A DNA stretch of 64,000 nucleotides from a virus (IMGVR_UViG_3300033144_003548); one strand, 5' to 3'. Counted from the stretch's first letter, positions 15,453-44,655 are shown. The notes: a model not told the origin generated them from the letters alone. Program-made: numbers and translations.

Positions 15453-15953
15453 TTGGTAGATATGATAGTAATTGACCCAAATAATTTTAATTTTGAGGAA
15501 CTGGAAAAAGATGGAAAGATAGTCGCAGTATCGGGTTATTTTGATCCGCCCACACCTACTCATCTTATCTACTTTAGGGCAGCAAAGGAACTTGGGAAGT
15601 GGCTAGTCGTTATATTGAACACCGATGAACAATTATTAATGAAGCGAAAAGGGACTCCACTTGAAGGCAAGATAAGATATGAATGGTGGGACAGAGCATT
15701 TATCGTGAACGAATTTAAAACAGTCAATCTGGTTGTAAGGTCAATTGATGAGGGAAGAGGTATAGCAGAAACTATAAGAGCAATTAAACCCAACATCTTT
15801 GCGAAGGGTGGGGATAGAAACCCAAAAGATAATCCTATCCCCCAAGAAGAAATAGATGTTTGTAAGGAAGTAGGTTGCGAGATTGTGTATGGTGTGGGTG
15901 GTGACAAAGATAGTAAGACACATTCAAGTTCTTGGTATAATTGGGAAAGCTAA
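15453..15953 (+). CDS. Cytidylyltransferase-like protein (HIGH superfamily)
   Basis: VAVSGYFDP, AKELG..LVVILN.D, FAKGGDR, HSSSW. Confidence 0.8.
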   Translation: MVDMIVIDPNNFNFEELEKDGKIVAVSGYFDPPTPTHLIYFRAAKELGKWLVVILNTDEQLLMKRKGTPLEGKIRYEWWDRAFIVNEFKTVNLVVRSIDEGRGIAETIRAIKPNIFAKGGDRNPKDNPIPQEEIDVCKEVGCEIVYGVGGDKDSKTHSSSWYNWES

Positions 15954-17326
15954 TGGAAATAATTAGAAGACTGGCAAAAAAGTTTAATACAGCAGGTTAC
16001 GAACTTTTTGAAGTTGGTGGTCACGTTAGAGATTCTCTGATTGGCAGAGAATCTTATGATATTGACCTAACTACTAATGCCAGACCAAAGGTGATTAAAT
16101 CTTTGGTAAGGGGCTTTGGTAGCGTCTACGATGTTGGTGAGAAGTTTGGAACAATTGGTCTGATGGTAGATGAACAGCTAATTGAAATCACCACCTACAG
16201 AAAGGAAGTTTATGCAAACAATTCTCGCAAACCACAGGTAACCTTTGGCAATAATCTAATAGATGACCTATCTAGGAGAGATTTTACCATAAATGCTATT
16301 GCCCGTAACCCATTGACCGAGGGTATCGTTGATCCATTTGGTGGAATTAAAGACATCGAGGCAAGGACTATCAGGTGTGTTGGTAACGATGATGAGAGAT
16401 TTAATGAAGACCCTCTAAGAATGATGAGGGCAGTTAGATTTGCGTGTCAGCTAGGTTTCAGAATGGAAGTGAGAGTTAACCATCCAGAGAGGCTTCGCAT
16501 CATCTCCAATGAAAGAATCAGAGATGAGCTATCCAAAATATTGCTGTCTCTAAAACCAGGTTTTGGTATCAGGAGATTGTGCAGTATGAAGCTTATGGAT
16601 TATATTTTTCCAGAATTTATAAACCTGAAAAATATAGAGCAAGGCAAAAATCACATCAAAGATGCTTTCCATCACTCTCTAATGGTTCTGGATAAAGGTG
16701 CAAGAATTGACCACAAGGAATACAATCTTGAGTTCAGACTCGCTTGCCTACTGCACGACATAGCTAAACCAGAAACAAAGACTGAGGATGAAACTGGCGT
16801 TCACTTCTATGGTCATCATTTCGTTGGTTCTAAGAAAGCTAGAAAGGCTCTTAGGAGACTTAAATATGATAATGATACCATAGATAGAGTATGCCATTTA
16901 ATCAAGTATCATATGACCCCAATTATGTTACAGAAGGAACTTGTTGCAGGTGAGATACGTAAAAGAGTTATAATGAGGATGATTAGAAAAATCGGAGAGA
17001 GTAATATTTACTTGCTACTTGACTTGGTTAAGTGTGATATTCGTTCTTCAAAAAACTCAAGATACAAATTTATAAATGTTTTGACTACGATGGTTGATGA
17101 GTGTATGAAAGAGCAGCCAGAATCTCTCGTTTCACCATTAGACGGTGACGAGATTATGGAACTTTACAACCTAAGACCTTCCCGTGCCGTTGGTAAAATC
17201 AAAACCTACTTGACTAATCTTGTTGTAGATGGTAAAATAGATAAGGAAGATAAAGAGGCTGCTAAAGAAAAAGCTATGGAATATATTAAGACCCAACTAA
17301 TTGAGGAGATAATGAACGGTGAGTGA
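15941..17326 (+). CDS. cca: CCA-adding tRNA nucleotidyltransferase with HD domain
   Basis: VGGHVRDSL, DIDLTT, DLSRRDFTINA, EDPLRMMRAVRF, LLHDIAKP. Confidence 0.9.
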   Translation: MGKLMEIIRRLAKKFNTAGYELFEVGGHVRDSLIGRESYDIDLTTNARPKVIKSLVRGFGSVYDVGEKFGTIGLMVDEQLIEITTYRKEVYANNSRKPQVTFGNNLIDDLSRRDFTINAIARNPLTEGIVDPFGGIKDIEARTIRCVGNDDERFNEDPLRMMRAVRFACQLGFRMEVRVNHPERLRIISNERIRDELSKILLSLKPGFGIRRLCSMKLMDYIFPEFINLKNIEQGKNHIKDAFHHSLMVLDKGARIDHKEYNLEFRLACLLHDIAKPETKTEDETGVHFYGHHFVGSKKARKALRRLKYDNDTIDRVCHLIKYHMTPIMLQKELVAGEIRKRVIMRMIRKIGESNIYLLLDLVKCDIRSSKNSRYKFINVLTTMVDECMKEQPESLVSPLDGDEIMELYNLRPSRAVGKIKTYLTNLVVDGKIDKEDKEAAKEKAMEYIKTQLIEEIMNGE

Positions 17327-20477: not shown

Positions 20478-21077
20478 TTAACTTACATCTAAAAATAATT
20501 TAACTGTATTTCCTTCCTGAGCTACCAGCAAGTTTCCTAGCTCCACGTATGACAAAATATCAGTTTCCTCAGCAAAATCTGCTGGAATCGGAACAATGTC
20601 TTGTGGTAGAACGTCAATACCACTTCTCCAGAAGAACTCGGCTACAGCTTCACTACAGATCATCTTTGGATCTCTCTTATATTTGTGAATAAGAGGTCGT
20701 TTTATCCCAAACTTTTCACGTAGCACACGCAAAGCTGCGTAACGAAGTGCTCCAAACCAATCATAAGATGCTTTGTTATCGCTTGCAACCTCGACTGCTT
20801 TCTTGATGAGCATCTTAATTTCCTTTTTAGTTAGATTGGGACGCATAACCACAACTCGTCTGCCGTCCTGGTGAGCGACATTTTGAATGACTACCCCACG
20901 ATTATCACTCTCAACTAATAAGGGAATGTCAGTAAACCCCACACCTAGATACATTTCTACGTGCTCATATCTGCCCATAGCCCATCTTTTAATCTTGGAA
21001 AAAGTATCTTGTCTATTATTCAAACAAACTAAGACATCACAAGCTTGCAGTTCAATCAAATCCATATTCGTATTCAA
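20478..21077 (-). CDS. Permuted papain-like (YiiX/NlpC-P60) hydrolase
   Basis: YEHVEMY precedes YD and MICSE (His before Cys). Confidence 0.7.
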   Translation of the reverse strand: MNTNMDLIELQACDVLVCLNNRQDTFSKIKRWAMGRYEHVEMYLGVGFTDIPLLVESDNRGVVIQNVAHQDGRRVVVMRPNLTKKEIKMLIKKAVEVASDNKASYDWFGALRYAALRVLREKFGIKRPLIHKYKRDPKMICSEAVAEFFWRSGIDVLPQDIVPIPADFAEETDILSYVELGNLLVAQEGNTVKLFLDVS

Positions 21078-21423
21078 TTACCCTCACCCCCGCTTTTTTG
21101 GCTTGCTCAACCATATTTTTTGTGCCTTTGCTTTTCTCTTTGGCACTATAAAAGGCAAGCACCAAATCAGGCTTACCTTCAACTAACATTTGTTTATTTC
21201 TTATTGGACCTGCTGCCTTACCGTATGTTGCCCAATCAGCAGGAAATTCAATAACCTTCCACCCCCACGCTTCTGCTATCTCACGTGCCATTGTGTCAGC
21301 ACCTTTTGCACCACCTTCAATGATGGTTGCACTAGGTGATAGATTGGACATAATGCTGACCATCTTTGCTCGACCAACATAATCCCTACTACCACAAATC
21401 AATACTCGTTGTGCGTTTTCCAT
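21052..21423 (-). CDS. SLOG family protein (DUF2493/YspA-like)
   Basis: VLICGSRDY, IIEGGAKGAD, ADWATYGKAAGPIRNKQML. Confidence 0.85.
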   Translation of the reverse strand: MENAQRVLICGSRDYVGRAKMVSIMSNLSPSATIIEGGAKGADTMAREIAEAWGWKVIEFPADWATYGKAAGPIRNKQMLVEGKPDLVLAFYSAKEKSKGTKNMVEQAKKAGVRVIEYEYGFD

Positions 21424-21437
21424 TAAAAACTCCGAAA

Positions 21438-22304
21438 CTATAAGTAGACCCATAAGCCGAATTCTGTTTTATGTGAACATTTATCTTGATTTAATGTTAC
21501 CACTAAATTCTTCGCCACCTACCCGAAGCTATAGAGTGAGCACTCAGCTTCTGCTTGGTGTTGCACCAGATGGAGTTTACCTCTCCTACTTATACTCCCT
21601 ATTCCTACCTGAAAATGTAGGTGTTTGACTGTGACAATTGGGACACAAGAATTCTAAATTTTCTGGTCTATTATCATTACTAATACCATTCTTGTGGTTT
21701 AATTGTAAGGAAATCTTTTTACCTTGCCACTCACCAACATTACCGCAGACTTGACATTTATATTCTATTATCTGCCTTCTAATAACACGTCTTTTTAATG
21801 TTGCACCACATACTCTTGAGTTCTCACAAAAAACTTCCTTATCTGGTACAGGTGGTTTACGACTAACCTGATAATGTCTGCCCAAATTATTGTTGTATCC
21901 CAATGGAATATGTGAGATGTCCAAGTTATCTGCCTTGATACGCTTCTTGAGAATTTCATACCCCGAAGCCACATTTGGAACATCTATCTCTTTTAGTGTA
22001 CCAATTAAAGTATCGTGTTTATAGAGCATATTCTGCAAGTCTTCTTTAGGTATTGTCCATATTTTTGACCTTTTCCTTTGTTTATACATTCTAGCCTCGT
22101 GGTAGAGATAAGTAGGAGTTTAGCACTTGTCGTCAGATTTCTCTGCTAGGGTGTTACCCTACATCCTGCTCGATGGTGTTCGGACTTTCCTCTCTCTTTC
22201 TAACCTACCTTGATTTTCTGACCGATCCTAATCCCTGCAAGATTCCCAGGTCATATTTGCAGCCTCGGTTTAGAAAGTTGAGCGTTCACTCGGTCTACTT
22301 ATAG
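21438..22304 (-). ncRNA. rnpB: RNase P RNA interrupted by an HNH ORF
   Basis: 13-bp P1 (21438-21450/22292-22304), GAGGAAAGUCCG (22181-22192), GGUAAACUCC (21572-21581), AGAUAAAUG, AAACAGAAUUCGGCUUAU (21452-21469). Confidence 0.85.
21586..22089 (-). CDS. HNH endonuclease embedded in the RNase P RNA
   Basis: CQVCG...LQLNHKNGISNDNRPENLEFLCPNCHSQT; SD GAGG. Confidence 0.9.
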   Translation of the reverse strand: MYKQRKRSKIWTIPKEDLQNMLYKHDTLIGTLKEIDVPNVASGYEILKKRIKADNLDISHIPLGYNNNLGRHYQVSRKPPVPDKEVFCENSRVCGATLKRRVIRRQIIEYKCQVCGNVGEWQGKKISLQLNHKNGISNDNRPENLEFLCPNCHSQTPTFSGRNREYK

Positions 22305-22308
22305 TATA

Positions 22309-22396
22309 TGGCGGAGGGTGTGAGATTCGAACTCACGGTGGTTTGACCCACTTCAGTTTTCAAGACTGCTCCTTTAATCCACTCAGGCAACCCTCC
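22309..22396 (-). tRNA. tRNA-Ser(TGA)
   Basis: Cloverleaf, long variable arm, encoded CCA. Confidence 0.9.
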
Positions 22397-43338: not shown

Positions 43339-44655
43339 TTAAAAACCACCTGTTTCGTAAGCTCTAATGTAATTCAAGACGGCTTCTGACCAACCATCAA
43401 TGTGAGTCCAGTTGCCGTAACCTACACCTCTCTGGTAAGAAGCAACATTTATCATATAACCCCTACCATTTGGTTTGCCAACTCTATCACTTGACTGCTC
43501 ATCAGTTATAACAAGTAGTCGGTCATAATTTGTGTTATTAACTGCGTTAACAGCACCACCTAGAGAAGTTCCGCCGTGAGGCTGAGAATTAATTATAGCA
43601 TCCCTCAATGCAAATCCGTGCCTTGCAGCAACTCTCTTTGCATTATTTGAGAATGTCCATATCTCAGCATCATCTGACATTTCTCTAGCCAGTATTGCCA
43701 GACCACAAGCAGCATCCATCGCAGTTAACTCTGACTTACCAGACAACCTTGAACCCATACTGCCAGACACATCCACCAACACCGTAGTTTTACCATCCAA
43801 CTTACCCTGACTTGCAACAGCCTTGAACATAGCCTTTTCTAGTTCAGTTTCCCACTGGGGTGCGTGGCTAGCTGCTGTAATAAATCTAAATGGTAAAACT
43901 CTGTCTACCTTCATATGGTCTAGAGCATCCTTCACCAACACCTCATCGACACCAGATTGGTGCATATTCCTCAAGTTACGAAGCAGAGCCATAGCTCCAA
44001 GCTTCCCATCTTTGATTAAACGCTCAAAAGTATCCTTCTTATCCTTACCAGCACTTAAATTAACTTCCCAAGTATCAGGTGCTGCCAAAGTCCCATCAAC
44101 CAATTGCTTCCAAGTATCCACCTGTTCTTTGCTTGTTGGTTTTGGGTGAGTAAGGAACAAAACATCTCTCAACTTAACTTCAGCATCTCTATTGTACTTG
44201 GCAAGCTCGTATTCATCAAACTTAGGAAAAGCTTCTGCCAAACCCTTCTTAACTTGTGCTGACAAGGGTTGCCTGCCGTCCTTCCAGTAAATCTTCAAAA
44301 ACTCGGCAGGCTCATCTGCACGTTGCATTATTCTTGCCAAAGTTTCCTTTACCAAGTGCTTGTGAGTATTGTGCTTAGCCATTTCACGCACAATTAGCAA
44401 AGGAACGTGACGCAGCTTCATTTGCTCCCTAGCTTCGATAGCTATCTCAGCCACCTTCTCTGGTTTTACTTTAGGCACAAGATCAGCTATTCTTTGAGCA
44501 ATATCCTTTCCACTCTCGTAGAAAGTGTTCTCCCAAAGCAAGCAAGCCATAACTGACCTTCTTAGCTCCAGCTCAGGACTTATCCTTCTTGCTGGACCTC
44601 CCTCGTGTGTGTAGATAGGAACTCTTGTTCTTGTTGCCGTGTTTGTTCTCACCAT
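43339..44655 (-). CDS. Ro60/Rsr TROVE-domain RNA-binding protein with vWA domain
   Basis: THEGG, LLWENTFYESG, DTWEV.LS, MALLRNLRN, DVSGSM (MIDAS), ITDEQ. Confidence 0.92.
   Translation of the reverse strand: MVRTNTATRTRVPIYTHEGGPARRISPELELRRSVMACLLWENTFYESGKDIAQRIADLVPKVKPEKVAEIAIEAREQMKLRHVPLLIVREMAKHNTHKHLVKETLARIMQRADEPAEFLKIYWKDGRQPLSAQVKKGLAEAFPKFDEYELAKYNRDAEVKLRDVLFLTHPKPTSKEQVDTWKQLVDGTLAAPDTWEVNLSAGKDKKDTFERLIKDGKLGAMALLRNLRNMHQSGVDEVLVKDALDHMKVDRVLPFRFITAASHAPQWETELEKAMFKAVASQGKLDGKTTVLVDVSGSMGSRLSGKSELTAMDAACGLAILAREMSDDAEIWTFSNNAKRVAARHGFALRDAIINSQPHGGTSLGGAVNAVNNTNYDRLLVITDEQSSDRVGKPNGRGYMINVASYQRGVGYGNWTHIDGWSEAVLNYIRAYETGGF

Follow-up and report, generated by a model that had tools for sequence, protein, structure and literature searches.

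An HNH endonuclease gene in place of the distal specificity domain of a phage-encoded RNase P RNA

The RNA of RNase P, which trims new tRNAs, is among the few ribozymes that are universal to cells. In type A RNase P RNA, the conserved regions CR-II and CR-III and the helices P12-P14 recognise the T-loop of the tRNA. Reduced RNase P RNAs that lack most of the specificity domain are known as well, namely the type T RNA of Pyrobaculum, constructs consisting of the catalytic domain only and the 'micro P' constructs. Here we describe an RNase P RNA gene (rnpB) in a stretch of 64,000 nucleotides (nt) of viral DNA (IMGVR_UViG_3300033144_003548; the whole stretch is referred to below as the window), in which an open reading frame (ORF) for an HNH endonuclease stands within the ribozyme gene. 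The RNA resembles type A RNase P RNA, as represented by E. coli M1 RNA (rnpB), in P1-P5, P7-P9, P15, P16/17, P18, the P4 pseudoknot, the GGU motif of L15 and the GNRA loops of P9 and P18. It differs from it in being encoded by a phage within a tRNA array, in the replacement of J11/12 to P14 by a coding cassette, and in a P3 that is longer by 84 nt. With the type T RNA and the 'micro P' constructs it has in common that the catalytic domain is kept and the T-loop modules are missing; in the present case, however, this loss is tied to the gain of a mobile gene, and it is found in a virus.

Several described systems resemble parts of this arrangement. SegB of phage T4 is presented as a free-standing endonuclease of the phage tRNA region (PMC2330249, as cited in PMC6582537), and intron-less homing has been reviewed (PMC2988022). 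The gene in the window likewise encodes a nuclease, has a ribosome-binding site of its own and lies in a tRNA cluster without an intron, and in this system, too, near-identical phages differ in the presence of the gene and in a replaced adjacent sequence. However, whereas genes of the SegB type lie between genes, the window nuclease interrupts the gene of a structural RNA where the fold tolerates an insertion, and brings its own closing helix. Another parallel is the intervening sequence (IVS) of the 23S rRNA of Coxiella burnetii, a selfish, horizontally acquired and stem-closed element which carries an ORF, interrupts a helix of an essential stable RNA and is excised by RNase III (PMC4990558). 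In the window, the host RNA is a ribozyme rather than an rRNA and part of it has been lost, and in contrast to the decaying and apparently untranslated ORF of the Coxiella IVS, the ORF encodes an HNH nuclease under strong purifying selection. In Aeromonas phage Aeh1, the nrdA gene is split by mobE and is still functional (PMC3045599). There, too, a free-standing endonuclease is situated inside a phage gene, but the two parts are polypeptides, whereas here they are ribozyme halves joined by base pairing. Insertions carrying homing endonuclease genes in the rRNAs of bacteria of the candidate phyla radiation (CPR) are mostly intron-like (PMC11270868). These rRNA introns and the HNH genes in mycobacterial tRNA clusters are the literature that looks nearest to our case, and neither a virus-encoded RNase P RNA nor a protein gene within an RNase P RNA was found to be described in full-text literature searches. 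The locus thus combines known kinds of elements: a type A RNase P RNA, a free-standing HNH homing endonuclease and a stem-closed insert in a stable RNA.

Anatomy of the split RNase P RNA gene

The initial annotation, made from the sequence alone, had placed the hallmarks of an RNase P RNA in two separate halves, and indeed both halves match RF00010 separately (Table 1). The gathering threshold of this family is 100 bits; in E-value mode, 21437-21705 scored 59.8 bits (E 1.4e-17) and 22107-22191 scored 36.4 bits (E 1.2e-9, model positions 44-222). The gene ends that had been proposed coincide exactly with the outer ends of P1. The 5' half contains the 5' strands of P1, P2, P4, P5 and P7, the whole of P3, P8 and P9, and the start of P10/11 (GACGACAAGUGC). 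The 3' half contributes the 3' strands of P7, P5, P2, P4 and P1 and the whole of P15, P16/17 and P18, together with the GGU motif of L15 and ACAGAAUUCGGCUUA. The P4 pseudoknot is present, with CR-I (GAGGAAAGUCC) and CR-V (ACAGAAnnCGGCUUA); 7 of its 7 pairs are canonical, and at three of these both partners vary within the rnpB family. When the remaining parts of the catalytic domain were aligned to RF00010 (CGGGUAGGUGGC and CAAGAUAAAUG), P1, P2, P3, P5, P15, P16/17, P18, the L15 GGU motif and CR-IV were all found to be present, P3 having a single A-A mismatch. P9 and P18 retain their GNRA loops.

The distal part of the specificity domain is missing. A motif search of the 868-nt RNA detected neither ACAGAGA or ACAGAAA nor GUGAAA (CR-II and CR-III) at any position, and relatives have AACAGAGACGAG...GAGUGAAACGGG at the corresponding place. 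The remnant of the domain consists of P7-P9 and the start of P10/11, while P12-P14 with CR-II and CR-III are gone, which bears out the earlier impression of a reduced specificity domain. The RNA had also been judged to be of normal size once the loop is left out. With 354 nt this is correct, but it is partly a coincidence, because an expansion of P3 offsets the missing P12-P14. Relatives have a 4-nt loop at the place of this expansion. A 477-nt contig from a public DNA run also contains the expansion, with small deletions, and another contig from the same run has a short P3. The possibility that the P3 expansion is a second, decayed cassette, at which CCGAGGC...AUG and ...AAGGUAGG seemed to hint, found no support, as its alignments with the cassette ends were equalled or beaten by 41-300 of 500 shuffles.

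Table 1. Features of the rnpB locus and its immediate neighbours in the window.
Feature	Position	Strand	Basis or remark
RNase P RNA gene	22304-21438	minus	RF00010 match in two pieces and P1 ends
P1, perfect 13-bp helix (CUAUAAGUAGACC with GGUCUACUUAUAG)	22304-22292 with 21450-21438	minus	In the minimum-energy fold
5' half of RNase P RNA	22108..22304	minus	Partial RF00010 match; core pairs in the window canonical (59 of 60); 92% identical to insert-free L058
84-nt P3 hairpin expansion	22196..22279	minus	Alignment A1; extended hairpin in the minimum-energy fold
First UAAACUCC copy	22115..22122	minus	Directly after GUGC
Stem 5' strand CUCCUACUUAU	22118-22108	minus	Perfect 11-bp pairing with the 3' strand; same strand in L121 and L202
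Insert loop, 514 nt	22107-21594	minus	Between the two RF00010 halves
Shine-Dalgarno sequence GAGG	22095..22098	minus	Read from the sequence, 5 nt upstream of the ATG at 22089
HNH endonuclease gene, 167 aa, intact	21586-22089	minus	PF01844; phrog_10822
Stem 3' strand AUAAGUAGGAG	21593-21583	minus	Holds the last two sense codons and the TAG stop
3' half of RNase P RNA	21438..21582	minus	RF00010 match; 87% identical to L058; covariation
Second, native UAAACUCC copy	21572..21579	minus	Counterpart of GGGUAAACUCC in L197, L201 and L194 and of cAAaCCCC in the RF00010 consensus
tRNA-Ser(UGA), last of a 28-tRNA array	22309..22396	minus	ARAGORN; Rfam tRNA, 54.3 bits
YspA/SLOG family gene	21052..21423	minus	PF10686, E 4.6e-12

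The stem that had been reported to enclose the insert pairs exactly over its 11 bp and is part of the minimum-energy structure of the 868-nt fold, with pair probabilities of 0.85-0.99. Since 79 of 1000 dinucleotide shuffles of the 868 nt contain a perfect 11-bp stem somewhere, the stem taken alone is weak evidence. Its weight rests on the exact bracketing of the ORF and on its recurrence in relatives, where the design is repeated with 11 bp including one G-U pair (L121) and with 10 bp of a different sequence (L196). All elements attributed to the loop, that is, the Shine-Dalgarno sequence and the HNH ORF with its final codons and TAG in the 3' strand of the stem, could be located. The spacing is tight, with 18 nt from the stem to the ATG and 0 nt after the stop codon, and the end of the ORF (GAG UAU AAG, followed by TAG at 21588-21586) is part of the 3' strand. 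This strand is supplied by three extra C-terminal codons (EYK), which are absent from the L196 protein.

Relatives fix both breakpoints of the insertion. After GACGACAAGUGC, the normal AACAGAGACGAG... gives way to UAAACUCCUACUUAU, and the normal sequence is found again from GGUAAACUCCAUCUGG. The cassette therefore replaces the stretch from J11/12 to the 3' side of P14. A position at about P12, as originally suggested, is right with respect to the region, but the cassette is not simply inserted into the P12 loop. No intron family was matched in 21400-22330 by cmscan at E-values of up to 10.

Two repeats deserve mention. In the window and in L121, UAAACUCC flanks the cassette on both sides, while cassette-free alleles have the 3' copy only; the doubling may have been left behind by the events that produced the cassette and the deletion. 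Furthermore, the P1 5' strand (UAUAAGUAGACC) has 9 bases in common with the stem 3' strand (UAUAAGUAGGAG), and the same holds for their partners. An alternative pairing, of the P1 5' strand with the stem 5' strand and of the stem 3' strand with the P1 3' strand, could therefore make each half its own hairpin domain. The alternative pairing is not present in L121, whose P1 differs, and the shared bases could be due to chance, to gene conversion or to a switch.

Alleles of the phage rnpB family and selection on the core

Relatives were obtained by pattern scans of IMG/VR and JGI metagenome contigs, and the phage rnpB genes recovered, which are designated here by L numbers, are all located in tRNA arrays. 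The initial annotation had advised a search for insertion-free alleles, and full-size alleles of this type were found in L058, L126, L127, L193/L195, L194 and L201. Those of L058, L126 and L127 score 188, 196 and 176 bits, respectively, with RF00010, and the contigs of L126 and L127 are rated 99% and 90% complete. L197 has a miniature specificity domain that retains ACAGUGA...GAGUGAAAC. The window-type junction with a decayed ORF is represented by L121, a complete phage genome of 133,760 bp with terminal repeats. Its junctions (GACGACAAGUGCUAAACUCCUACUUAUCUCUACCACGA ... GUAAGUAGGAGAGGUAAACUCC) are identical to those of the window, the stem strands enclose 125 nt only (an ATG with a few codons, preceded by the ribosome-binding region and followed by a 3' spacer), and its RNA scores 176 bits with RF00010. 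We therefore treated L121 as a natural proxy for the window RNA with the insert deleted. The same cassette with a live ORF was detected in L202, where the HNH gene ends with TGA instead of TAG, and in a 2,248-nt contig of a public DNA run. Lastly, L196 carries a cassette at a second site, with a 158-aa HNH protein and its own 10-bp stem.

In viral contigs, the 5' junction of the window was found in L121 only, and no match to the 3' junction was obtained in metagenome contigs. A scan with the pattern TCTGGTGCAACACCAAGC gave mostly chance matches in protein genes. In L121 and in a contig of run X2, a spacer, GUUCUA(A/G)CAAGACUUGUUUAA, separates the end of the ORF from the 3' strand of the stem (in the run X2 contig, among 25 letters between positions 21598 and 21590 of the window). 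The window is without this spacer, and its ORF runs directly into the stem.

In the window, 59 of the 60 core pairs are canonical. Selection on these pairs was assessed in an alignment of 10 alleles (alignment A1), in which standard pairs were formed in 99.0% of the cells as compared with 88.9% in shuffles, and in which 27 of the 60 pairs were changed on both sides as compared with 14.1 in shuffles. Neither value was reached in any of 500 shuffles. As a control, the 3' partners were slid by 1-3 columns, and the paired fraction was then 28-43%. The covariation includes P1, P2, P4, P5 and P7, the strands of which are located on opposite sides of the insert. Moreover, in L121 the nuclease has been lost and the core is still fully paired. 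For a dead gene, the reverse order of decay would be expected. Altogether, the sequences give no sign of a decay of the ribozyme.

The P4 strands of L193 and L196 (GGAAACUCC ... CGGGUU) show an unusual change. The near-universal G of GGAAAGUCC is a C in these alleles, with a compensating G in the 3' strand, which amounts to a swap of G-C to C-G at a site of the catalytic core that is highly conserved.

Shorter RNase P-like RNAs that score below the Rfam threshold were also observed in dense tRNA arrays (L128, 461-767, minus strand, 68.8 bits; L129, G005:45811-46140, 26 bits), and in L018, L112, L113 and L073 two P4 motifs are merely 147-407 nt apart. Reduced phage RNase P RNAs thus appear to be common.

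The nuclease, movement of the cassette and the genomic setting

The HNH protein scores 26.7 bits with PF01844 (cut-off 21.4) and matches phrog_10822 with an E-value of 3e-36. Its catalytic and zinc motifs, CxxC...H-N-N...CxxCH, are intact (CQVC...NHKNG...N...N...CPNCH). The nuclease genes of the window and L202 differ at 67 of 504 bases, with 46 synonymous and 16 non-synonymous codon differences; the synonymous divergence (dS) is 0.80, and its ratio to the non-synonymous divergence (dN/dS) is 0.054. As judged from this comparison, the HNH protein is under strong purifying selection and the insertion site has long been occupied. In L202 (2-499, minus strand), the HNH gene is followed by a second ORF, encoding at least 107 aa (MIALDITKR...), in place of the 3' strand of the stem, and the contig ends before the 3' half of rnpB. 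This second ORF had no match to a Pfam family.

The window protein is 48% identical to the rnpB-resident HNH protein of L196, and the three rnpB-resident proteins cluster, with an SH-aLRT value of 93, in a fast tree search that covered 39 HNH proteins. Among viral contigs, 55 HNH homologues were found. Of the 43 loci that were scanned, 40 are within phage tRNA arrays, where the gene usually follows right after a tRNA on the same strand, and none of the 55 homologue loci in viral contigs is flanked by the P4 motifs of rnpB. We therefore regard this HNH family as a resident of phage tRNA arrays, like T4 SegB.

The clearest view of an insertion is offered by L196 and L193. Their flanks are 99-100% identical, with a single mismatch over about 160 nt upstream and no mismatch over about 280 nt downstream, and the difference between them is confined to the stretch between GACGAU and GUGAAACGGG. 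The stem of L196 is formed by GUCACUACCG with CGGUAGUGGC over 10 bp, with the TAG stop in the 3' strand, and the HNH gene is followed by a P12 tract of other origin, which is L197-like. From these alignments, L196 is recognisable as an occupied allele, and L193 and L195 as empty ones, with a co-conversion tract. The 5' insertion point of L196 lies 6 bases upstream of that of the window. The cassette ends of the window and L121 are identical, whereas the rnpB cores around them agree to only 80% and 78%, and either core is nearer to a cassette-free allele (87-92% and 84-90%, respectively). The cassette, or the cassette with some flank, thus seems to have moved between backgrounds. A near-identical empty allele of the window itself was not found among the relatives recovered.

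Taken together, the occupied and empty pair and the identical junction in two backgrounds that are about 79% alike, with no intron, agree with the initial proposal that the strategy of homing endonucleases is used in a non-splicing ribozyme. The further proposal that this would make rnpB mobile between phages applies to the cassette and a short flanking tract, but not to the rnpB gene as a whole.

The phage nature of the locus, which had been assumed at the outset, is confirmed by the genes in the window with PHROG matches (clamp loader, CCA-adding enzyme, Ro60-like protein, UvsX-like recombinase, DNA polymerase and DnaB helicase) and by the presence of relatives in complete or near-complete viral genomes of 134-153 kb. 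A 4-nt gap (22305-22308) separates tRNA-Ser from P1, and the 3' end of a tRNA also adjoins P1 in L193, L196 and L197. On the other side, the signals of the YspA/SLOG gene, GGAG (21433-21430) and ATG (21423), are found directly downstream of P1. No minus-strand terminator was found between tRNA-Ser and the SLOG gene, and promoter-like sites within the unit occur at chance level only. We infer that the ribozyme and its neighbours are co-transcribed.

Several genes related to tRNA lie near the ribozyme (15941-17326, 43339-44655, 21052-21423 and 22309-43144), namely the 28 tRNAs, the CCA-adding enzyme (phrog_2244, E 1e-71), the Ro60-like RNA-binding protein (phrog_850, E 1e-52) and the YspA/SLOG gene. 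GOLLD RNA (199.7 bits) and transfer-messenger RNA genes were observed in viral contigs with tRNA arrays (L112, 2438-2853 and 6827-7195; L136, 3212-3618). A blastn search of INPHARED for close relatives of the window matched only HNH and tRNA-Ser fragments. With respect to the host, a search of about 185,000 species, each represented by one genome, did not detect the P8-P9 signature of the rnpB family, and the generic P4-P5 motif, which occurs in many phyla, is uninformative.

Possible explanations and their implications

We consider it probable that the window contains a phage rnpB derived from type A, with an intact core and with an intron-less HNH homing cassette in place of the distal specificity domain, and that the RNA is likely to be a working ribozyme still. 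According to this explanation, rnpB would be transcribed as one unit of the phage tRNA array, and the cassette would be read in the order of one stem strand, the ribosome-binding site, the free-standing HNH gene and the other stem strand including the stop codon. The stem would hold the two halves together, so that P1, P2, P4, P5 and P7 can form across the 514-nt loop and the core, with the catalytic domain and the P7-P9 cruciform intact, folds around the loop. A ribozyme centred on the catalytic domain could then act on phage pre-tRNAs with weakened or altered recognition. It would do so with the RnpA protein of the host, as no match to RnpA (PF00825) was found in four related phage records, one of which is 100% complete. 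The same transcript would serve as the mRNA of the nuclease, and because the stop codon is within the helix, translation and folding are probably mutually exclusive for a given molecule. As suggested by the alleles, the nuclease would cut the cassette-free rnpB DNA of co-infecting relatives, and double-strand-break repair would copy the cassette and a short flank into it.

Several observations weigh against this explanation. The intact window sequence gave no match to RF00010 at the gathering score, and the Rfam scan of the whole window at this score returned only the 28 tRNAs, all on the minus strand. Since CR-II, CR-III and P12-P14 have been lost, the binding of substrates must be weaker or be accomplished otherwise. 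The closing stem is not universal, because L202 has the second ORF in place of its 3' strand, and the support for an HNH clade specialised on rnpB is moderate only. It should also be noted that the covariation is silent as to which branches were under selection and that much of it may predate the insertion. Because the cassette moves laterally, a recent date is conceivable for some of the insertions.

This last point would suit the view that the insertion of the HNH gene and the loss of P12-P14 have inactivated rnpB, leaving a young pseudogene beside a live nuclease in a phage that uses the RNase P of its host. The defining motifs of the specificity domain are absent, the intact sequence is below the Rfam gathering score, phages do not need an RNase P of their own, and if the cassette was acquired laterally, an intact core could merely reflect a recent event. 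However, the pairing of the window core, the retention of P4, the GNRA loops of P9 and P18 and the L15 GGU motif, and a cassette site that is shared by at least 4 diverged genomes and holds nuclease copies at the dS given above speak against such an inactivation. In particular, the decay seen in L121, where the ORF is degraded in a perfectly paired core that scores well with RF00010, has the order opposite to the predicted one. We therefore regard a dead gene as improbable. Removal of the insert as an intron (group I, group II or other self-splicing), which would give a continuous RNase P RNA, is exceedingly improbable. Phage group I introns often carry HNH genes, I-HmuI being an example, which would count in favour of such an intron. 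So would the mostly intron-like insertions in CPR bacterial rRNAs (PMC11270868). Nevertheless, the 18 nt and 0 nt on the two sides of the ORF leave no room for a ribozyme core and no intron family was matched, which excludes this reading, and the 125-nt remnant in L121 is equally without intron features.

Another possibility, which we consider unlikely though less so than inactivation, is a ribozyme in two pieces. The stem would then be a processing site at which the ORF loop is removed during or after translation, and fragments of about 200 and 155 nt would be held together by P1, P2, P4, P5 and P7. The stem-closed design is the same as that of the Coxiella 23S rRNA IVS that is excised by RNase III (PMC4990558). 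The five helices that join the halves comprise 35 base pairs, enough to hold both pieces, and a two-piece RNase P had already been proposed in the initial annotation. On the other hand, the stem is merely 11 bp long, or about 14 bp with a bulge, whereas typical substrates of RNase III are longer.

A wider version of the homing explanation is more tentative, and we would give it slightly less than an even chance. It holds that an HNH lineage has specialised on phage rnpB, each cassette bringing its own helix with a stop codon in it, and that the RNA alternates between the states of an mRNA and of an RNase P that is active on phage tRNAs in spite of the lost T-loop arm. A ribosome at the stop codon would melt the closing helix. 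Cycles of invasion and decay, with cassettes that appear to be live in the window, L202 and L196 and decayed in L121, would drive the diversification and shrinkage of phage RNase P RNAs.

The alleles described here form a natural series within one phage family, with a full specificity domain, a miniature one, a live cassette and a decayed cassette. This series makes it testable how much of the specificity domain a bacterial-type RNase P needs in vivo. In addition, the tolerated insertion point and the design of the closing helix provide a template for embedding cargo in structured RNAs. For the biology of homing endonucleases, the present findings would mean that a selfish protein gene can apparently reside in an RNA gene without an intron, provided that a helix loops the insert out. 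They also suggest a concrete way in which a ribozyme is remodelled by mobile genes: along with the insertion in L196 a P12 tract has been replaced, and in the lineage of the window the whole distal arm is gone.

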